A stretch of DNA of 64,000 nt from Nitrospirota bacterium (GCA_016194305.1 JACQBW010000003.1:39224-103223), one strand, 5' to 3'; shown: positions 18,943 through 54,040, counted from the stretch's first letter. A program made the numbers and translations. The notes: a model not told the origin generated them from the sequence alone.

Positions 18943-19165
18943 AGAGCTGAAAAAGTATTAGTAATTCCGGTTTGTCAAAAAATCCCATCTGCAAGGCCGC
19001 AGTTTTGACGGTGCACGTTGGCACGAAAAAGTGTCAACAAGATCGTGCACGGGCGCGAGGAGGTGAGCGCCCTGGATCAGCTAAGGCGTACTTTTAATGT
19101 ACGTTGAAGATGACCGAGAAACGAGAACGAAGCAGATGGACTTTTTTACAGACCTGCCCGAAAAT

Positions 19166-19239
19166 CGGGGCGTGGCGCAGCCCGGTAGCGCACTCGCTTG
19201 GGGTGCGAGGGGTCGAAGGTTCAAATCCTTTCGCCCCGA
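19166..19239 (+). tRNA. tRNA-Pro (anticodon GGG).
   Basis: A manual cloverleaf gives a 7-bp acceptor CGGGGCG/CGCCCCG and an anticodon stem CTCGC/GCGAG. The loop is TTGGGGT and the T-loop is TTCAAAT. The discriminator is A and no CCA is encoded. Confidence 0.85.
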
Positions 19240-19318
19240 TCAAATAGGTGAAGCATCAGGGGTAACCTGTTGTTAAAGCCTAGTTTCAGCTTTTAGTTTG
19301 CCCCAACTGAAACAGAGG

Positions 19319-19359: not shown

Positions 19360-20118
19360 ATGGATATACTAGTCTCAAACGACGACGGGATTCACTCGCC
19401 GGGAATTCACATGCTTGCCACGGCACTGCAGGAACTGGGAAATGTCTATGTCGTTTCGCCTGATCGGGAACGAAACGCTGTAGGCCACGCTCTCACACTT
19501 CATAAGCCGCTCAGAGTCGAAGAGATAAAAAAAAATTATTTCAGCGTTAACGGAACTCCTACCGATTGTGTCAACTGGGGTGTTCTCCATCTTTTGAAGA
19601 CTCCTCCGGCCCTCCTTGTTTCAGGCATCAATAAAGGGGCAAATCTGGGGGACGATGTCACCTATTCCGGTACCGTTTCCGCCGCATTTGAAGGGACGCT
19701 TCTCAAAATTCCCTCTATGGCGATTTCCCAAATGGGTCCTCCTCCCTATGAATTCAAGACAGCCGCCCATTTTGCAGTTAAAATTGCGAAAATGGTCCTG
19801 TCTCAGGGCCTTCCTCCCGATATTTTATTGAATGTCAATGTTCCCAATCTTCCGATCGAAAAGATGGGTAAGATAAAATGTGTTGGCCTGGGAAGAAGAG
19901 TTTTCGAAGATAATGCCATTATCGAAAAGGAAGATCCACGGGGACGTAAATATTTCTGGATTGGCGGAACTCAAATTCTCTGGGAAAAGAAGCGGGGCAC
20001 GGATAACGAAGCAATTTCAAATCATCAAATCTCCGTGACGCCTCTCCACCTAGATCTGACCCACTATGAATTCTTAAAGAAAATGGAAAGCTGGGAAACA
20101 CGCCTGAATTCAGAATGA
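19360..20118 (+). CDS. surE: 5'/3'-nucleotidase SurE.
   Basis: The N-terminal signature is 'ILVSNDDGIHSPGIHMLA'. Confidence 0.85.
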   Translation: MDILVSNDDGIHSPGIHMLATALQELGNVYVVSPDRERNAVGHALTLHKPLRVEEIKKNYFSVNGTPTDCVNWGVLHLLKTPPALLVSGINKGANLGDDVTYSGTVSAAFEGTLLKIPSMAISQMGPPPYEFKTAAHFAVKIAKMVLSQGLPPDILLNVNVPNLPIEKMGKIKCVGLGRRVFEDNAIIEKEDPRGRKYFWIGGTQILWEKKRGTDNEAISNHQISVTPLHLDLTHYEFLKKMESWETRLNSE

Positions 20119-23049: not shown

Positions 23050-24379
23050 TGAACTCAGCGATAAGTTAAACGCGATCTTCAAGAAAATCCGGGGAGTGGG
23101 TGTTTTAAGAGAAGAGAACATCACCGAAGCGCTCAGAGAAGTCCGACTGGCCCTTCTTGAAGCCGATGTTCATTTTAAGGTGGTGAAAGGTTTTGTCGAT
23201 TCAGTCAAAGAGAAGGCCATAGGCCAAAAGGTCATGGAAAGTCTGACTCCGGGTCAGCAGATGATCAAAATTGTCTATGATGAGCTGGCTCAATTGTTGG
23301 GTGGACAACAGGCAAAAATTCCGATGTCTTCCCGTCCTCCCACCCGATTCATGCTGGTCGGTTTGCAGGGAGCGGGGAAGACGACGACTGCCGGAAAGCT
23401 GGCCTTATTCTACAAGAAAGAGGGAAAACGAGTCCTCTTGGTTCCGGCAGACCCCTATCGTCCCGCCGCGAAATCCCAGCTGGAGTTTCTTGGAAAACAG
23501 ATCGACGTTACGGTTGATTCGTCGGACCTGAACGAACCCGTCCTGATCGTGGCCAATGCCATAAAAAGAGCGGAAAGAGAGGGTTTTGAACTCGTCATTA
23601 TCGATACGGCGGGCCGGCTCCAGATGGATGAAGCCCTGATGATGGAGCTTCAGGAAATAAAAAAACTTGCCCAACCTGATGAAATTCTGATGGTGGCTGA
23701 CGGAATGATCGGCCAGGAAGCGGTCAAAGTCGTGGAAGGTTTTCATCAAAGGTTAGGGGTGACCGGAATTATTTTAACTAAAATGGAAGGGGATGCAAGA
23801 GGCGGTGCGCTCCTTTCGATGAAACAGGTCACCGGAATGCCAGTACGATTTATGGGGACTGGCGAAAAGCTGGAAATGCTGGAATTTTTTTATCCTGACC
23901 GGATGGCTTCACGAATTCTTGGGATGGGCGATGTGCTTTCACTTATTGAACTGGCCCAGGAGAATTTTGACAAGAGCGAGGCTGAAAACGTCGCCAGGAA
24001 ACTTCAGACCAATCAGTTCACTCTGTCCGATTTTAAAGAGCAGATCAAACAGTTTAAGAAACTCGGTTCGATTGAAAAAGTCCTTTCCATGATTCCCGGA
24101 GCCGGACAATTGAAACTCAAAGGGGATATGGCGATGCCTGAAAAGGAATTTGTAAGAATTGAAGCGATAATTGATTCAATGACCCTGAAGGAGCGTGACA
24201 ATCCCGGAGTGATCAACGGCTCAAGGCGGAAGCGTATTGCGAAAGGAAGCGGAACTTCCGTTCAGGAGATCAACAAGCTTCTCAAGCAGTTTATGGAAGC
24301 AAAGAAAATGATGAAAACCTTAAGCGGCAAGGGCGGAGCGAGAAATCTATGGCGTTCAATATCTTCAATGAAAGGTTAA
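23042..24379 (+). CDS. ffh: Signal recognition particle protein Ffh.
   Basis: The N domain and a G domain with 'LVGLQGAGKTTT' and 'IDTAGRL' are present. The Met-rich M domain has 'GRRKRIAKGSG'. Confidence 0.9.
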   Translation: MLNELSDKLNAIFKKIRGVGVLREENITEALREVRLALLEADVHFKVVKGFVDSVKEKAIGQKVMESLTPGQQMIKIVYDELAQLLGGQQAKIPMSSRPPTRFMLVGLQGAGKTTTAGKLALFYKKEGKRVLLVPADPYRPAAKSQLEFLGKQIDVTVDSSDLNEPVLIVANAIKRAEREGFELVIIDTAGRLQMDEALMMELQEIKKLAQPDEILMVADGMIGQEAVKVVEGFHQRLGVTGIILTKMEGDARGGALLSMKQVTGMPVRFMGTGEKLEMLEFFYPDRMASRILGMGDVLSLIELAQENFDKSEAENVARKLQTNQFTLSDFKEQIKQFKKLGSIEKVLSMIPGAGQLKLKGDMAMPEKEFVRIEAIIDSMTLKERDNPGVINGSRRKRIAKGSGTSVQEINKLLKQFMEAKKMMKTLSGKGGARNLWRSISSMKG

Positions 24380-25194
24380 AGTCTTTATTTGACTTTACTT
24401 CAGACGGAGTGATTATTCTCGATCATGCGATGAAAATCGTCGAGATTAATCCCGCGGCCGAAGCCATGACCGGTTGGAAGGCATCTGAAAGAAGAGGGTC
24501 TCCATTTCCGTATGAAAAACTGATTTCCCTGGATCCCGCCCAAAAAAAAGAAACAGGCGTTGACCTCTTTAATACGGCCGAGAGCCGCCATGACCTGGAA
24601 ATGGAAGTGACCCTTCTTCATGGCAATAAACTTCATCTTCCCGCGACCAGCTTTCCGATTTCCGGTGAAGGAGGGGAGCAATTTTTTGGTTTGATCCTTG
24701 AAAATATCTTAATGAAAGAGGGGGTTGTTGAGAATTTAATCCGACAGGAACGATTGGACGAGATGACCGGCCTCCTCCATAAGGACTATTTTCAACAGGT
24801 CTCAGGGGATGAAATAAGAAGAATGAACAAGAACGGTGGAACCCTCGGAGCAATTCTGATTCAAATCAAGAATCTGGACAAGATCCGGGAGAAGTTTGGC
24901 TCCGTCAAAGGAAGCGAAACGATCAAAAAGGTGGGAAGCCTGGTTAAGGGCAATTCCAGAGATATCGACCTGGTCTGCCGTTATGACGAAAACGAGTTTC
25001 TGGTCCTGCTCATTAATTCGGATACTGCCAAAATGAGTATCATTCTAAGGCGGCTCAAAGAAAAACTGGTTCATTCGAATAAAAGCGCCCATTTTCCTGC
25101 TCCGGTTCGGATCCGGTTGGGAAACGTGCTCGTGAATGACCACTATGAGGAAATCTTTAAAGCGGTTAAACTCTCGCTTGATAAATTTGTATAA
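24349..25194 (+). CDS. PAS-domain protein with a degenerate GGDEF domain. The active site is Y-D-E-N-E-F in place of GG(D/E)EF.
   Basis: The PAS-like N-terminus is 'DGVIILDHAMKIVEINPAAEAMTGW'. The GGDEF-fold C-terminus has 'LDEMTGLLHKDYF' and 'RYDENEFLVLL'. Its start overlaps the ffh stop by 31 nt. Confidence 0.65.
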   Translation: MAFNIFNERLKSLFDFTSDGVIILDHAMKIVEINPAAEAMTGWKASERRGSPFPYEKLISLDPAQKKETGVDLFNTAESRHDLEMEVTLLHGNKLHLPATSFPISGEGGEQFFGLILENILMKEGVVENLIRQERLDEMTGLLHKDYFQQVSGDEIRRMNKNGGTLGAILIQIKNLDKIREKFGSVKGSETIKKVGSLVKGNSRDIDLVCRYDENEFLVLLINSDTAKMSIILRRLKEKLVHSNKSAHFPAPVRIRLGNVLVNDHYEEIFKAVKLSLDKFV

Positions 25195-25303: not shown

Positions 25304-25555
25304 GTGGCAGTAACGGTTAGATTATCAAGGGCGGGAAGGCACAAGAGGCCTTTTTTTAGAATTGTGGCAACAGATTCCAGATCTCCGAGAGAAGGAAGAT
25401 TTCTTGAGGTGTTAGGGACTTACGATCCTTCGAAAAAAGAAGAAAATTGCCTGGTTAATGCTGAGAAAGTCCAATATTGGTTGGGTCAAGGGGCTACCAT
25501 TTCCGACACCGTCAAGAGCCTTTTGCAAAAGAAAGGTTTATTTAAAAAAGCATAA
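25304..25555 (+). CDS. rpsP: 30S ribosomal protein S16.
   Basis: 'MAVTVRLSRAGRHKRPFFRIVATDSRSPREGRFLE' is present. Confidence 0.9.
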   Translation: MAVTVRLSRAGRHKRPFFRIVATDSRSPREGRFLEVLGTYDPSKKEENCLVNAEKVQYWLGQGATISDTVKSLLQKKGLFKKA

Positions 25556-25594
25556 CGTTTCAGTTGAATGCCAACATCATCCGGGGAGGCAAAC

Positions 25595-25840
25595 ATGGAA
25601 GCGGAATTAATGAGGCACCTGATTGAGCATATCGCTAAATCCCTTGTCGATAAACCTGGAGATGTTGTTGTGAGAGAGACGGATGGAGAAAAGACCACCA
25701 TTATTGAATTGAAAGTACATCAGGAAGATTTGGGGAAAGTCATCGGAAAACAAGGTCGAACTGCCCGTTCGATGAGGACCATTCTTAATGCCGCCGGGAT
25801 CAAACTCGGAAAAAGATGCGTTCTTGAGATCTTGGAATAA
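25595..25840 (+). CDS. KH-domain RNA-binding protein (YlqC/UPF0109 type).
   Basis: 'VHQEDLGKVIGKQGRTARSMRTIL' has the KH GXXG loop. GGGGAGG precedes the ATG at 25595. Confidence 0.75.
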   Translation: MEAELMRHLIEHIAKSLVDKPGDVVVRETDGEKTTIIELKVHQEDLGKVIGKQGRTARSMRTILNAAGIKLGKRCVLEILE

Positions 25841-25843
25841 AGG

Positions 25844-26358
25844 ATGTTAGAAGATTCCGGAGATTGGATTCTGATAGGAAAGGTTCTGAAAGCTCAGGGA
25901 TTGCATGGAGAAATAAAAGTTCATCTTCTGACCGATTATCCTGAGCGATTTAATGCCGGGGAGCGCGTCCACTTAAAAAAAAAGCGTTAACCTCTTTTTT
26001 AATTCTCTCGTCTCGAATCGAAGGTGAGTTCGCTTATTTAAAACTTGAAGGAATTGAGAATAAGGAGAGTACTGCGGATCTTCTTGGAAAAGAATTTCTG
26101 ATTCCCGTCGATCAGTTGAAACCTCCGGGAGAAGGTACCTATTATCCGTTTCAGATTCTGGGGTTTGATGTTTGGAGCGAAGAAAACGAACTGATTGGAA
26201 AATTGACAGAAATTTATTTGAATCCGAACCAGTCACTTTATGAAATCAAATCTGGAAAAAAGGAATATCTGGTCCCGGCGACGAAGAATTTTATAAAGAA
26301 AATTGATCTGGTTGAGAAGAAAATAGTCATTCATCTCATCGAGGGGATGCTTGATTGA
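25844..26358 (+). pseudogene. rimM: 16S rRNA processing protein RimM, interrupted by a frameshift inside an A9 homopolymer at 25975-25983. One extra A would restore a continuous reading frame.
   Basis: The N-terminal 48 codons 'MLEDSGDWILIGKVLKAQGLHGEIKVHLLTDYPERFNAGERVHLKKKR*' lie in one frame. The remainder '(A)LTSFLILSSRIEGEFAYLKLEGIE...PRC-barrel...GMLD' lies in the +2 frame. The downstream frame has no plausible start before the TTG at 26116. Confidence 0.6.
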
Positions 26359-26383: not shown

Positions 26384-27136
26384 ATGAAAGCGAAAATCGT
26401 AACCCTGTTTCCAGAGATGATCAGGCCAGTGCTTCGGCAGAGCATCTTGAAACGGGCGATCGAAGGGAAATTTTTAGAAGTAGAGGTTCTGGATCTCCGG
26501 GATTTTAGCCGGAATAAGCATTGCCAGGTGGATGATGCCCCCTACGGCGGAGGGGCGGGAATGGTTATTTCTTCTGAACCGGTTTTCGAACTTTTCGAGT
26601 CGATAAAGTCAGAAGCTCCTTTTAGAACGATCTTACTTTCACCAGGAGGGAGGCCCTTTAATCAAAATATGGCCGAAGCGCTAAGCCGGGAGACAAAATG
26701 TCTCCTTTTCCTTTGTGGCCATTATGAAGGAATCGATGAAAGAGTCCGTGTTGCGCTTCAACCTGAAGAAATTTCTGTGGGCGACTATATCCTGACGGGA
26801 GGAGAACTCCCGGCATTGATTCTACTGGATGCAATCACGAGGCTGATCCCGGGCGTCCTGGGCGATCAAGAGTCACTTAAAGAAGAATCATTTAATGCAG
26901 ATCTTCTGGAATATCCACATTATACCCGGCCTTTCGAGAGCGGGGGCATTAAGGTGCCTGCCGTCCTTTTATCCGGTAACCATGAGGAGATCCGAAGATG
27001 GCGATTAAAAGAGTCTTTGAGGAAAACACTTGAGCAAAGGCCTGAACTTCTGGAACAGAAAGAACTCACACCGGAAGAAAAGAGCTTTTTAGACGAGCTA
27101 AAATTAGAAAAAACGAGTGATTTGAAAAGAGTTTAG
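26384..27136 (+). CDS. trmD: tRNA (guanine37-N1)-methyltransferase.
   Basis: 'KIVTLFPEM...[13 protein letters not shown]...LLSPGG' and '[13 protein letters not shown]' are present. Confidence 0.85.
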
Positions 27137-27161: not shown

Positions 27162-27584
27162 ATGAATCAAAAAGAACGCATTGAAAAGGGGCTGATCACC
27201 AAAGAGAACGCCTCATTTAAGATTGGGGATACCGTCAATATTCATGTCAAGGTGATCGAGGGTGAGAAGGAAAGAATTCAGATATTCAAAGGGGTTGTGA
27301 TAGCCCGCAGATGGACGCTTAACCGGGAAACGTTTACAGTCAGAAAAGTCTCCTATGGTGTGGGTGTCGAGCGTATTTTCCCGCTCCACTCTCCTTTTGT
27401 TGAAAAAATTGAAGTCCTGAGAGAAGGTAGAGTCCGGCGAGCCAAACTCTATTACCTCAGAGGGAAAAAAGGCAAAGCCGCACGTATCGCCGAAAAGGCG
27501 AGTTTTGGGGCCGAAGAATCCATTGTCGTGGCTTCGCCGGTGGCTTCCGAAAAAGTGGAACCACTCGAAAAGGTTCCTTCCTAG
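27162..27584 (+). CDS. rplS: 50S ribosomal protein L19, with a roughly 25-aa C-terminal extension.
   Basis: '[32 protein letters not shown]' is present. Confidence 0.9.
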
Positions 27585-28647: not shown

Positions 28648-28971
28648 ATGGAAACGGGATTTAATACCGACATCGAATATCAAAAAAGGATATTCCACGT
28701 TCAGACCGAAGAGAGTGGCCCGCAAAACCCGGTCATTATTACCCATCTTTTTTACAAAGGGGCAATATTATCCTCTAAAAAGACAAATTATAGTTCTCTT
28801 CTTGATCCTAAAACCGAAATAGAAAAACTGAAAGAGTTAATGAAGAAGCAGCATGAAGAGATGATTACCACCCTATTAAACGGTCAGTGTAATCATCTGC
28901 TTGGGGAGGGCGTAGCCAAAGATAAGAGTCTCGATGATTACATAGATGACTATATTAGAAACAGGCAATGA
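28648..28971 (+). CDS. Hypothetical 107-aa protein, translationally coupled to ftsE by an ATGA overlap.
   Basis: The ORF has no recognisable motif. It is tightly packed between yraN (3-nt gap) and ftsE (4-nt overlap). Confidence 0.5.
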   Translation: METGFNTDIEYQKRIFHVQTEESGPQNPVIITHLFYKGAILSSKKTNYSSLLDPKTEIEKLKELMKKQHEEMITTLLNGQCNHLLGEGVAKDKSLDDYIDDYIRNRQ

Positions 28972-29624
28972 TTCAGTTTTCTAATGTTTTTAAAGGGTAT
29001 CACCCCAGACAATTTATATTGAAAGATGTCAGTTTTTCGATCGATAAGGGGGAATTTGTTTTCATAATGGGGCCGAGTGGTGCCGGAAAAACGACCCTCC
29101 TTAAGCTCCTGTTTTGCGAAGAGAAAATCGATCAAGGTTCCATCCTGGTTCAGGGCCAGAACATTGCCAGAATTCAATCCTCCGCGATTCCCTTTTATCG
29201 AAGGAAAATCGGCTTCATTTTTCAAGACTTCAGACTCATTCAAAAAAAAACCGTCTTTGAAAACGTTGCCCTTGCCCTCAAAATTATGCATGTTCCGACC
29301 AAAGAAACTGAGAAAAAAGTGATGGAAGCGCTTGCCCTGGTCGGACTTGAATATAAAAAAGAAGTTGTCGCGATCGATCTTTCGGGAGGAGAACAGCAGA
29401 GGGTCTGTATTGCCAGGGCATTTGTCAATCGTCCTCCCATTATTCTGGCTGACGAACCGACCGGTAATCTTGATTTTGACCTTTCACTCCACTTTTTACA
29501 ACTCCTGAAAGGTATTCAGGCGAGAGGGACGACCATCGTTGTTGCCACACACAATAAGGAACTGGTCAACATGTCAAAAAAAAGGATCATTACGATTAAA
29601 GAGGGGAGAGTTTCTTCTGAATAA
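28968..29624 (+). CDS. ftsE: Cell-division ABC ATPase FtsE.
   Basis: Walker A is '[14 protein letters not shown]'. The '[14 protein letters not shown]' signature and Walker B '[11 protein letters not shown]' are present. Confidence 0.85.
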
Positions 29625-31762: not shown

Positions 31763-33154
31763 ATGAGTTGGAGAAATAGGAAACAGGCTACCGTCACCTT
31801 TACCGCGCTGGTTCTCATGCTGGTGCTCGGAATCGTTGTGGGAAGAGGATTTGATCGTGTATTTGCCCAACCGGACACTTACGACGAACTAAAGACTTTC
31901 TCCGAAGTATTGTCGACCGTTCAGAAGAATTATGTTGAGGAGGTCAAGTCGAAAGATCTGGTCTATGGCGCGATCAAAGGCATGCTCAATACCCTGGATA
32001 GCCATTCTTCATTCATGCCCCCTGAAGCGTATAAGGAAATGCAGGTGGATACCAAAGGAGAATTTGGAGGCTTGGGAATCCAAATAGGCATTAAGGAAAA
32101 CAAACTGACTGTGATATCTCCTATTGAAGGGACCCCTGCGGATCTTGCGGGAATCAAAGCGGGAGATGTCATTTTGAAAGTGGATGGCCAATCTTCAGTG
32201 AATTTGAGTTTGCAGGAAGCCGTGGAGAAAATGAGGGGACCCAAGGGAAGCAAGGTTGTTTTAACGATTCTTCGGGAAAATACGCCGGACCCTCTCACGT
32301 TCACACTGGTCAGAGATATCATTAAAATTCAGAGCGTTAAGAGTAAGATGCTGGATAAAGGAATTGGTTATATCCGTGTAACCCAGTTTCAGGAACATAC
32401 GTCAAGAGATCTGGACAAAGCGCTCAAGAAATTAAAAGAAGATAAAATGCAATCATTGATTCTTGATTTAAGAAATAACCCCGGAGGTCTTTTGACTTCG
32501 GCAATTGAAATTAGTGAGGCTTTTCTCGAACCGGGCAAGCTGGTTGTTTTTATCAAGGGGCGGGATGGTAAGAAAGAGGAATATAGTTCGAATGGTCCTG
32601 CGAACCAGGAAAATTTCCCGATGATCGTTCTGGTCAATGAAGGGAGCGCTTCCGCTTCCGAGATTGTGTCGGGTGCTCTGCAAGATTGGGGAAGAGCGGT
32701 TGTGGTCGGCGTGCAGACTTTTGGGAAGGGATCTGTTCAGACGATACTTCCCTTGTCGGACGGAGCAGGTCTTCGACTCACGACGGCTAAATACTATACC
32801 CCAAAGGGAAGGTCCATCCAGAATGTCGGGATTGAACCGGATATTACTGTTAAACCGCTGCCTCTCAAGGATGCGAAAGGAACTGTCATGAACCGTCCTA
32901 TTCTTCGCGAGAAGGATCTGGAACGGCACTTGAAAAATGAAACAACCAAAGAGTTGGAAAAGGAGGATTCCTCGACGCCTCCGCAGAGCGAAGAGAGCCT
33001 GCCTATCCTTGAAGAAAAGAAAGACCAGGAAGATATCCAACTTCAAAAAGCAATTGATTTGCTAAAAAGCTGGAAGATTTTCAAGCAATTGATGCCTGGA
33101 GCGGTAACAACCCGCGGGGAAGGGACACAAAAGGAGGCTCTGGTAGGAAAATAA
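31763..33154 (+). CDS. ctpA: Carboxyl-terminal processing protease (S41 family, PDZ domain).
   Basis: The PDZ domain has 'GDVILKVDG'. The S41 catalytic region has 'IVLVNEGSASASEIVSGALQDWGRAVVVGVQTFGKGSVQ'. Confidence 0.85.
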   Translation: MSWRNRKQATVTFTALVLMLVLGIVVGRGFDRVFAQPDTYDELKTFSEVLSTVQKNYVEEVKSKDLVYGAIKGMLNTLDSHSSFMPPEAYKEMQVDTKGEFGGLGIQIGIKENKLTVISPIEGTPADLAGIKAGDVILKVDGQSSVNLSLQEAVEKMRGPKGSKVVLTILRENTPDPLTFTLVRDIIKIQSVKSKMLDKGIGYIRVTQFQEHTSRDLDKALKKLKEDKMQSLILDLRNNPGGLLTSAIEISEAFLEPGKLVVFIKGRDGKKEEYSSNGPANQENFPMIVLVNEGSASASEIVSGALQDWGRAVVVGVQTFGKGSVQTILPLSDGAGLRLTTAKYYTPKGRSIQNVGIEPDITVKPLPLKDAKGTVMNRPILREKDLERHLKNETTKELEKEDSSTPPQSEESLPILEEKKDQEDIQLQKAIDLLKSWKIFKQLMPGAVTTRGEGTQKEALVGK

Positions 33155-33181
33155 TCGGTTTTTGTTTTATGAGTCATCGAA

Positions 33182-33221
33182 TTTAGGGACATATTCAATA
33201 CGTGTCCCTAAATTTTTTTTT
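33182..33221 (+). terminator. Rho-independent terminator: a perfect 10-bp stem TTTAGGGACA/TGTCCCTAAA with an 11-nt loop, followed by T9.
   Basis: Read directly from the sequence downstream of ctpA. Confidence 0.7.
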
Positions 33222-33269
33222 GAAAAAAGTTATTTTTTACTTGAAATCAAATTTGTTTTGATGTATTTA

Positions 33270-33296
33270 TTAGCACTCTAGTAAGGTGAGTGCTAA
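33270..33296 (+). promoter_or_regulatory. CIRCE operator (HrcA binding site): TTAGCACTC-N9-GAGTGCTAA.
   Basis: It matches the CIRCE consensus perfectly and lies about 70 nt upstream of the groES start. Confidence 0.85.
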
Positions 33297-33740: not shown

Positions 33741-35378
<1,638 letters not shown>

Positions 35379-35558
35379 ACTGATCAAGTTTGCTGAAAAA
35401 GGTCATCTACTTCGTTCTCAACTCTCGGCTGTCTCGACGTACGGGTTAGTACGCCTGCGTTGCCTCGAGTCTGCGGCCTCGTAGATGAACCTTTTTGAGT
35501 AACTTGAATAGGAACGCTGATAAAATTTGGGCAAATAAATCACGATGCACCTGTGATT

Positions 35559-35588
35559 AGCCTCTTTGAAAAAGGAGGCTTTTTTTTT
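35559..35588 (+). terminator. Rho-independent terminator: AGCCTCTTT-GAAA-AAGGAGGCT followed by T8.
   Basis: Read directly from the sequence downstream of groEL and upstream of trxA. Confidence 0.6.
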
Positions 35589-35663
35589 AAAATTGACTAA
35601 CAAAATGAGATCAGATAAGATTTTATTTAATCTCAATTTCTAAAAATGTGGGGGTAAAACAAT

Positions 35664-35990
35664 ATGTCAGAGGTTCAAAAAGTAGCGTCGGGAAGCTGGG
35701 ATCAAGAGGTGCTGAAGGCAGATGGCCTGGTCATGATTGACTTTTGGGCCCCCTGGTGCGGACCTTGTAAAATGATTGCTCCGATTATCGACGAACTTTC
35801 CAAAGAATATGCAGGAAAAGTGAAAGTGATGAAACTAAATACCGACGAAAATCCCGATATTTCCGGAAAGTACCAGATCATGGGAATCCCTTCACTCGTT
35901 TTCTTCAAGGGTGGAAAGGTGATCGAAAAACTGGTCGGTGCCATGTCAAAAAAGCAGTTTAAAGACGCGATAGATCGGTTGTTGGTTTAG
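35664..35990 (+). CDS. trxA: Thioredoxin.
   Basis: The WCGPCK active site is present in 'FWAPWCGPCKMIAP'. Confidence 0.9.
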   Translation: MSEVQKVASGSWDQEVLKADGLVMIDFWAPWCGPCKMIAPIIDELSKEYAGKVKVMKLNTDENPDISGKYQIMGIPSLVFFKGGKVIEKLVGAMSKKQFKDAIDRLLV

Positions 35991-37749: not shown

Positions 37750-38271
37750 TTAGACTCTCTTTCCGGAAAACAGCGTTTCCATTTTTTTTAAGATATAGGT
37801 TCTCGAGGACCCAAGATTGCTGAGGTCCTTTTGAGGAACCTGTATCCCCATTGCCTCGACGATATCCGATATGAAATGGGTGACTTCCGTCTTTTTCCTT
37901 TTCTTCTCGAGGTTCTTTTTGACAATATCGATGATTTCACTCACCTCAAATGGCTTAACAAGATAATCGGATGCCCCATAGCGGATTCCTTCTACAGCGC
38001 TTTTCATCGTGCCGAATCCCGTGATCATAATCACAGCCATCTCTTCATTAAATTTACGAATTTCCCTTAAAAGTTCCGTTCCGGTCATGCCCGGCATTTT
38101 GTAATCCAATGTGGCAATATCAATCTCATTTTCATGGATAATCTTAAGAGCTTCTTCGCCGTTTTCGGCGGTAAAAATCGTATAGAAAGGCTTTAAAATC
38201 ATTTTGAGGGATTCGCGAGGTCCCAACTCGTCGTCAACGATCAGCAGATTAACCGGCCCGCTCCTATTCAT
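37750..38271 (-). CDS. Single-domain CheY-like response regulator with a short C-terminal tail.
   Basis: 'LLIVDDE...DIATLDYKMPGMTG...ITGFGT...SDYLVKPF' carries the receiver Asp/Lys signature. The ATG at 38271 is preceded by GGAGG. The track start at 38292 is a TTG. Confidence 0.8.
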   Translation of the reverse strand: MNRSGPVNLLIVDDELGPRESLKMILKPFYTIFTAENGEEALKIIHENEIDIATLDYKMPGMTGTELLREIRKFNEEMAVIMITGFGTMKSAVEGIRYGASDYLVKPFEVSEIIDIVKKNLEKKRKKTEVTHFISDIVEAMGIQVPQKDLSNLGSSRTYILKKMETLFSGKRV

Positions 38272-52794: not shown

Positions 52795-52830
52795 AAAAAA
52801 AAGCCCTCTTCCCTGGGAGGAAAGAAGGCT
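52795..52830 (-). promoter_or_regulatory. Putative pyr attenuator. It is a 12-bp hairpin whose loop and 3' arm read UCCCAGGGAAGAGGGCU (PyrR-box-like), followed by U8, ending 8 nt before the pyrR ATG.
   Basis: Read on the minus strand: AGCCUUCUUUCC-UCCCA-GGGAAGAGGGCU-UUUUUUUU. Canonical PyrR binding loops carry a UCCAGAGAGGCU-like motif. Confidence 0.5.
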
Positions 52831-52936
52831 TTTTATCCTTGATAGCAGTTCCCTTTATTTCAATCGCATATATAAAAGAGTCCGACACAAAAAGTTCCTT
52901 TCTAGTTTCACTGAACTAGGTTTAAAGGTTGAGTTT

Positions 52937-53967: not shown

Positions 53968-54040
<73 letters not shown>

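Follow-up and report, generated by a model that had tools for sequence, protein, structure and literature searches.

A conserved single-nucleotide frame break at a poly-A run in rimM of a Nitrospirota lineage, probably decoded by slippage

The subject of this article is a gene that does not fit into one reading frame. It lies in a 64,000-nucleotide stretch of DNA from a Nitrospirota bacterium (GCA_016194305.1, JACQBW010000003.1:39224-103223), which we call the window, and the gene is rimM. It occupies 25844..26358 on the plus strand, 515 nucleotides counted from its ATG at 25844, a length of 2 mod 3, and two frames have to be decoded to read it. The 0-frame segment (25844..25990, plus strand) runs from the ATG to a lysine at codon 47, then an arginine and a TAA at 25988..25990, which terminates an unshifted product of 48 amino acids. 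Just upstream of that stop is a run of nine A's (A9) at 25975..25983, TT-A AAA AAA AA-G, which we propose as the slippage site where RNA polymerase would add one A; in the 0 frame its context is CAC TTA AAA AAA AAG CGT TAA. At 25978..25984 the heptamer A_AAA_AAG stands in the correct phase of the 0 frame and, read from the sequence, could serve as a dnaX-type site for −1 ribosomal frameshifting. What remains of the gene is a −1-frame segment on the same strand (25984..26358, GCG to TGA) encoding the PRC barrel and the part of the RimM N-terminal domain that the 0 frame leaves out. In this −1 frame no stop occurs between 25954 and the TGA at 26356-26358, and the earliest start codon is a TTG at 26116. 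A sequence-only reading of this DNA had already placed the ATG, the run, the stop and the late TTG, with 48 codons before the stop, and every one of these positions was reproduced.

What the gene lacks is a single nucleotide. Adding one A to the run gives, as the sequence-only reading said it would, an uninterrupted RimM open reading frame (ORF), here of 171 residues and joined at ...HLKKK-ALTSF...; the junction-spanning peptide of this predicted full-length protein is RVHLKKKALTSFLILSSRIE. Both Pfam domains are intact, contiguous and in their usual order. RimM_N (PF01782) is unbroken over residues 11-90, matching profile positions 2-83 of 84 with an E value of 1.7e-16, and PRC_RimM (PF24986) follows at residues 103-168. 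In sequence alignments the fused protein matches the solved RimM structures 2F1L and 3H9N across the junction. The break falls inside the N-terminal beta-barrel domain, at what is a loop of variable length in other RimMs, and the 48-residue 0-frame product covers positions 2-37 only of the PF01782 profile, half of that barrel. Only a −1 shift joins the two parts, which amounts to one nucleotide gained in the mRNA. This bears on a suggestion already made for the locus, that expression might be rescued by slippage or by '+1/-1' frameshifting: the comparative evidence set out below favours rescue of this kind, while the direction has to be narrowed to −1, or one nucleotide gained.

When proteins were searched with the fused RimM, one relative came back intact (P0001, 70% identity), and six more, 68-74% identical, covered just the C-terminal 72-75% of the query. 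The contigs of those six carry a 48-residue RimM N-terminal ORF and then an overlapping C-terminal ORF. Related strains had been named as the place to look, and in diverged relatives the break is identical, at gene nucleotide 132. Nine frameshifted lineages can be compared as DNA (the window, L004/5, L006, L008, L009, L010, L011, L093 and L176), with RimM identities to the window of 53-74%. In all nine a YTA AAA AAA AAR tract begins at gene nucleotide 132 with a run of A9 or A10, the length of the gene is 2 mod 3, and a complete RimM can be read once exactly one A is added. The tract is TTA AAA AAA AAG in the window, L004/5, L006 and L011, and CTA or TTA AAA AAA AAA, followed by C or T, in L008, L009 and L010. 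The remaining two came from wider searches. A metagenome scan yielded only L092, which is the same contig as L011, and L093, which is 53% identical, reads A10-G and has the same −1 relationship between its parts; a search with N-terminal fragments gave L176 (A9-G), along with P0143 and P0148, frameshifted lineages known as protein only. An exhaustive representative search added P0150, again protein only, the first 30 residues of which are the −1-frame reading of the RimM N terminus. A scan of genome contigs from GTDB species representatives with the clade alignment found no member of the clade, just distant RimMs of at most 37% identity; the window's RimM clade is unrepresented or masked among the representatives scanned, though the query peptide patterns do occur in the window.

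The pattern of phases and stops is informative. Not one lineage is in the 1 mod 3 phase, which fits a rescue that supplies only one extra nucleotide. The 0-frame stop comes two codons after the tract in 7 of 11 lineages and further downstream in L176, P0143, P0148 and L093; its position, judged across these lineages, is not strictly conserved. The 0-frame tail that follows the three lysines is anywhere from 1 to about 40 residues long, a variation that gives no sign of selection on the short product itself. A neighbour-joining tree of RimM has L093, which is frameshifted, branching basally to the tract-bearing clade. The next branch is L172/L173, where the tract (1075-1084, gene nucleotides 134-143) is in frame as A10-G; this sister lineage is P0028, at 60% identity, and its close relative P0150 is frameshifted. 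All other frameshifted lineages form, together with the intact L007, a clade with 100% support. The simplest reading of this arrangement would be that the tract and the out-of-frame state are both old and that the frame was regained twice, in L172 and in L007. A9-to-A10 is a high-rate homopolymer mutation, so the persistence of an out-of-frame allele suggests that it is not disfavoured. In L172/L173 slippage would lower the output of RimM rather than enable it, a natural 'reverse' configuration of the sort described for dnaX.

Selection on the protein can be followed through both frames. Among the deep lineages synonymous sites are saturated (proportion of synonymous differences, pS, 0.6-0.85), with a proportion of nonsynonymous differences (pN) of 0.15-0.33; the ratio of nonsynonymous to synonymous substitution rates (dN/dS) in pairwise comparisons, wherever computable, is 0.04-0.26 in the 0-frame and −1-frame parts. 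Recent independent inactivations might lie behind low pairwise values, and as a guard against this we used a subclade in which every member is frameshifted (L004, L006, L008, L009 and L010), the common ancestor of which was, most simply, frameshifted as well. Within that subclade dN/dS is 0.10 in the N-terminal part and 0.19 over the 43 codons that lead from the tract to the first possible restart; beyond that point it is 0.07. Second lesions, whether stops or indels, are absent from all nine lineages, and the wrong frames hold 5-11 stops. Low dN/dS in both frames of a subclade that is frameshifted throughout argues that a protein spanning the two frames has been selected while its gene was out of frame.

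The run of A's carries a signature of its own. Once the extra A is added, the three lysine codons of the tract are AAA in 27/27 cases (in A9-G genomes the third reads AAG in the genomic frame and is counted as AAA with the extra A), while elsewhere in the same genes AAA makes up 58% of lysine codons and conserved lysine columns mix AAA and AAG. The leucine codon before the tract ends in A (NTA) in 9 of 9 lineages, against 22% A-ending elsewhere. It switches between TTA and CTA with the final A kept, and CTA, the rarest leucine codon, is used twice. Intact relatives that lack the tract have a single lysine at the site, LKDIEP in L007 and LKEDPP in L174. Going by these codon choices, what selection keeps is an unbroken stretch of nine or more A's, exceeding by three the number that A_AAA_AAG requires.

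Could the break be an artefact, or the gene dead? Both had been offered as options, and we reject both. Homopolymers are classic error sites and the window belongs to a metagenome-assembled genome (MAG), so a sequencing or assembly error that hid a true A10 is the obvious suspect, to which we nevertheless give the slightest of chances. The identical A9 and 48-residue ORF are present in Logan assemblies of two independent Sequence Read Archive runs, SRR12113409 and SRR12113410; over 6.1 kb these show 5 single-nucleotide polymorphisms relative to the window, at sets of positions that differ between the runs. A second MAG of the same species encodes the 48-residue fragment with one substitution (P0149); in all, A9 is found in 4 of 4 assemblies of the window species, and the break recurs in JGI, ENA, NCBI and Logan assemblies of diverged relatives, nine lineages in total (tract lengths are taken throughout from assembled consensus sequences). 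Nor does the window break frame at homopolymers in general. Among its 49 long homopolymers the rimM A9 is the only coding-strand run at a frame break, and rimM the sole broken gene; a further match of the scan, at 37782-37789, is on the non-coding strand of a minus-strand gene. Other A9 and A10 tracts are called in frame, in L172 and, within the window, at 19527-19535 in surE (ORF 19360-20118) and 29242-29250 in an ABC-transporter ATPase gene (ORF 28968-29624), where Pfam domains run straight through the tract. The idea of a recent pseudogene, or of a decaying gene tolerated since RimM is dispensable, has in its favour the broken frame, the want of a restart codon in the window until 26116, and the fact that rimM is not strictly essential in Escherichia coli. 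It too seems to us very improbable: the same lesion is shared by lineages so far apart that their synonymous sites are saturated, dN/dS stays at 0.07-0.19 in both frames of the frameshifted subclade, none of the nine lineages has a secondary stop or indel, and the codons of the tract are biased toward an uninterrupted run. We would also be surprised, if a shade less so, by phase variation, in which replication slippage in the DNA would switch between A9 (RimM off) and A10 (RimM on) and the assemblies would have caught the off state. Replication slips especially readily at poly-A tracts (PMC3711429), and L172/L173 does have its tract in frame as A10-G. Against a switch, 12 of the 13 tract-bearing lineages are off in the consensus and one is on, with four assemblies of the window species besides; all the off lineages need the same one nucleotide, with no 1-mod-3 state among them; a dN/dS of about 0.1 in a subclade that is entirely off implies that the gene is in use while off; and RimM is a housekeeping 30S assembly factor rather than a surface or restriction function. 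A last possibility at the level of the gene is that the C-terminal part is a protein with its own start, which joins the 48-residue peptide non-covalently to form RimM. A GTG or TTG does occur just past the tract in some relatives, where gene callers start an ORF of 123-124 residues (P0003-P0005), but the window and L011 have no start codon for at least 43 codons after the tract, yet dN/dS in that stretch is 0.19; TTG 26116 has no Shine-Dalgarno (SD) sequence before it, and the N-terminal beta-barrel would be cut mid-way. We think a split gene highly unlikely.

On this comparative evidence rimM is truly one nucleotide short of frame, and selection holds it in that state across the clade. That the clade relies on conserved, slippage-dependent decoding of rimM, by one machine or the other, we regard as very probable. 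The fuller statement, that RimM is made by slippage with transcription as the main route, is the one we favour, with more reserve. We infer that slippage occurs from the selection just described, and which machine slips from the anatomy of the site. Standard decoding would give the 48-residue fragment only, and the full-length 171-residue protein would come solely from expression events that gain one nucleotide of frame at the A9. By the main route the run of A's, which at nine or more matches the RNA:DNA hybrid in length, would allow the nascent RNA to slip back one base; RNA polymerase would then add a tenth A, and the resulting mRNA would be translated normally. As a minor or parallel route, ribosomes would shift by −1 on A_AAA_AAG, and such frameshifting, free of stimulators, could contribute a few percent. 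Runs of nine A's or T's lead to efficient slippage by bacterial RNA polymerase, the RNA:DNA hybrid of which is 9-10 base pairs (Atkins et al. 2016, PMC5009743), and when transcription gains or loses bases in A/T runs it mostly inserts a single one, at a frequency that climbs exponentially with run length (PMC5574713). We lean toward transcription because the length of the run is the conserved feature, and because insertions of a single base match the single direction, plus one nucleotide, seen here. If A9 does promote polymerase slippage in this host, the surE and ABC-transporter ATPase genes would be expected to leak truncated products.

The serious competitor is the ribosome. In a dnaX-type programmed −1 frameshift, tRNA-Lys would slip on A_AAA_AAG while the mRNA stayed A9; as the main mechanism we hold this possible, though doubtful. 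It has good points, and they count against a polymerase-led account: an X_XXY_YYZ heptamer, A_AAA_AAG or A_AAA_AAA, is in 0-frame phase in 9 of 9 lineages, A_AAA_AAG is the most shift-prone of bacterial heptamers (PMC4066793; PMC3711429), and the 0-frame stop within two codons in 7 of 11 lineages would suit it. What speaks for transcription instead is the lack of conserved downstream structure and of a consistent upstream SD-like element. Neither alifold nor single-sequence folding found a stimulatory hairpin or pseudoknot 5-9 nucleotides downstream; the alifold consensus (−3.2 kcal/mol) starts about 24 nucleotides past the tract with almost no covariation, and the downstream fold of the window has z = −0.05. 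Upstream, where a stimulator would be expected about 10-14 nucleotides from the site, GGGGAG, AGGGAG or GGGAG stands 14-15 nucleotides off in some lineages and CGGAAA or CCGGAC in others, and the SD-like motif overlaps a conserved glycine codon. The window also encodes a tRNA-Lys(CUU) at 53968..54040 on the plus strand (ARAGORN; Rfam tRNA, 69.8 bits), so AAG is not read by tRNA-Lys(UUU) alone, and tRNA-Lys(CUU) is expected to hold AAG tightly, which again favours the polymerase; a dedicated tRNA-Lys(CUU) is the explanation offered for polymerase slippage at Thermus dnaX as against ribosomal slippage at E. coli dnaX (PMC5009743). The three extra upstream A's kept by selection are, moreover, not needed for a ribosomal shift. 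Ribosomes sliding on poly(A), a different process, were set aside: this needs about 11 or more A's, a tract of A9-A10 is below the effective length, and little sliding is seen at A9/A10 (Koutmou et al., PMC4363877), a weakness that further inclines us to transcription. An upstream hairpin in the nascent RNA, considered as a stimulator of polymerase slippage, proved uninformative, with only weak GACC/GGTC pairing (4 + 3 base pairs, −6.6 kcal/mol) in conserved codons.

Beyond the heptamer, other facts weigh against our account of slippage-made RimM and what it is for. Several of the related contigs are short metagenome fragments. The RimM tree is built on some 170 residues, and its internal support is weak. 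L172/L173 bears the tract in frame (A10-G), and L007, nested among frameshifted lineages, has lost the tract, so the out-of-frame state is not obligatory. And the dosage-control function we come to below would be an inference by analogy with E. coli.

The proposal has precedents. Thermus thermophilus dnaX uses transcriptional slippage on a 9-nucleotide homopolymer (Larsen et al. 2000), and Chlorobi, with their two-ORF dnaX, obtain the longer product only by recoding at A7-A10 (Antonov et al. 2013, PMC3711429). In both, as in rimM, a housekeeping chromosomal gene contains a homopolymer of about the length of the RNA:DNA hybrid, conserved among orthologues. The Chlorobi gene shares with what we propose for rimM a functional full-length protein that depends on the slipped product, and dnaX lineages likewise differ in whether the long product is in frame or out (here L172 against the others). 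The differences are the gene, the phylum and the fact that slippage at rimM is deduced from sequence; in addition, unlike the gamma subunit of dnaX, the short rimM product of 48 residues and half a beta-barrel gives no sign of a function. E. coli dnaX has the same heptamer, the same phase and the same −1 direction as rimM, which is without the conserved downstream stem-loop of that gene, seems to want its well-placed upstream SD-like stimulator too, and belongs to a host that encodes tRNA-Lys(CUU), whereas E. coli has a single tRNA-Lys(UUU).

Endosymbionts offer a different likeness. In Buchnera and Blochmannia, housekeeping genes are broken at poly-A, remain under selection and have breaks shared between species (Tamas et al. 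2008, as cited in PMC5009743), with expression restored by transcriptional slippage (PMC5009743). Those are AT-rich, reduced genomes dominated by drift and with many lesions; our host is free-living, 43% GC, and has one lesion in 64 kb. The rimM lesion has been kept over much deeper divergence than those of the endosymbionts, which points to selection rather than tolerated decay. Overlapping ORFs fused by the insertion of one nucleotide into the mRNA at an A/T run are also found in Shigella flexneri mxiE and spa and in insertion sequence (IS) transposases (Penno et al. 2005/2006; Baranov et al. 2005, PMC1088944), where the fused product is made at a low, fixed ratio. Those are virulence genes and mobile elements, and rimM is a core ribosome-biogenesis gene in a ribosomal-protein operon.

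That operon deserves a description. The gene order is ffh, PAS/GGDEF, rpsP, KH protein, rimM, trmD, rplS, rnhB and yraN, with rpsP through rplS on the plus strand, and the rpsP-(KH)-rimM-trmD-rplS context expected of RimM is present. Upstream of rimM are rpsP (25304..25555), for S16, and a gene for a KhpA-like KH-domain protein (25568..25840), the stop codon of which is 3 nucleotides before the rimM ATG, a spacing that suggests translational coupling. Downstream, trmD (26384..27136) begins 25 nucleotides past the rimM stop and is followed by rplS (27162..27584), for the ribosomal protein L19. A comparison of the ribosome-binding site and coupling context of rimM between frameshifted and intact lineages revealed no compensating difference. 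Between ffh and rpsP lies a PAS-GGDEF gene, diguanylate-cyclase-like, at 24349-25194; it overlaps the end of ffh by 31 nucleotides, is an unusual neighbour for a ribosomal-protein operon, and is arranged in the same way in L004 and L174. Some relatives have an insert of about 200 nucleotides between rimM and trmD (L009 657-852, L010 1085-1282, L007 923-980). Those of L009 and L007 have the motif CAGCGAGCAATGCGAGCG in common, and the insert may be a small repeat or mobile element; the window, with its 25-nucleotide spacer, has none. At the far end of the gene order, the yraN (UPF0102) homologue of L004 (5494-5786) is reduced to two 44-residue ORFs with the central part deleted. This split was considered as a sign of homopolymer error and rejected as one, being an internal deletion and a real lesion.

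Elsewhere in the window there is a tRNA-Pro(GGG) at 19165-19241. Rfam also detects a PyrR-binding leader (RF00515) on the minus strand at 52795-52932, scoring 55.5 bits against a gathering threshold of 54 bits; it adjoins a minus-strand block of genes that includes the large subunit of carbamoyl-phosphate synthase, and it overlaps an A8 at 52795-52802. T9 tracts at 33213-33221 and 35580-35588 lie in the intergenic regions 33154-33290 and 35378-35664 and may be terminator tails or promoter-proximal slippage sites.

Why should a bacterium keep such a gene out of frame? In E. coli, rimM and trmD are translated some ten-fold less than rpsP and rplS from one transcript (PMC4378010, citing Wikstrom & Bjork 1988). 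The operon here is the same, and so is the need for far less RimM than S16 or L19; E. coli relies on poor translation initiation and mRNA folding, and the attenuator we propose is the required frame change. By that analogy, RimM is likely to be held at a fixed low fraction of S16 and L19 output. A bolder idea, which we entertain only tentatively and think unlikely, is that the poly-A tract is a selected rheostat that couples the supply of RimM to transcription elongation, replacing translational attenuation of the E. coli type. How often slippage happens depends on pausing and on the concentration of the next nucleotide, so RimM would be tied to the state of elongation. Were this true, the persistence of the out-of-frame state despite easy reversion from A9 to A10 would reflect selection against constitutive in-frame expression.

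Few non-mobile chromosomal genes of bacteria need recoding; established examples include prfB, dnaX and copA. Looking for earlier accounts of a recoded rimM, we came across none in the Atkins 2016 review, in the GeneTack paper with its supplementary material, in the Sharma 2014 survey of E. coli heptamers, or through targeted full-text searches on frameshifting in rimM and trmD. The gene and the clade are new for recoding; the class of mechanism is established. There is a practical side as well. Annotation pipelines at present divide this rimM between a 'hypothetical protein' of 48 residues and a shortened RimM, or would call it a pseudogene, and such a treatment could wrongly lower estimates of MAG completeness or suggest that rimM has been lost. 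The case opens questions of how slippage might set protein ratios within an operon, and how the tRNA-Lys repertoire might steer slippage toward polymerase or ribosome. It comes with its own evolutionary controls, a sister lineage in frame with A10 and another without the tract. If our account of slippage-made RimM is right, free-living Nitrospirota would have a required, conserved frame change in a ribosome-biogenesis gene, within the very operon that encodes ribosomal proteins.

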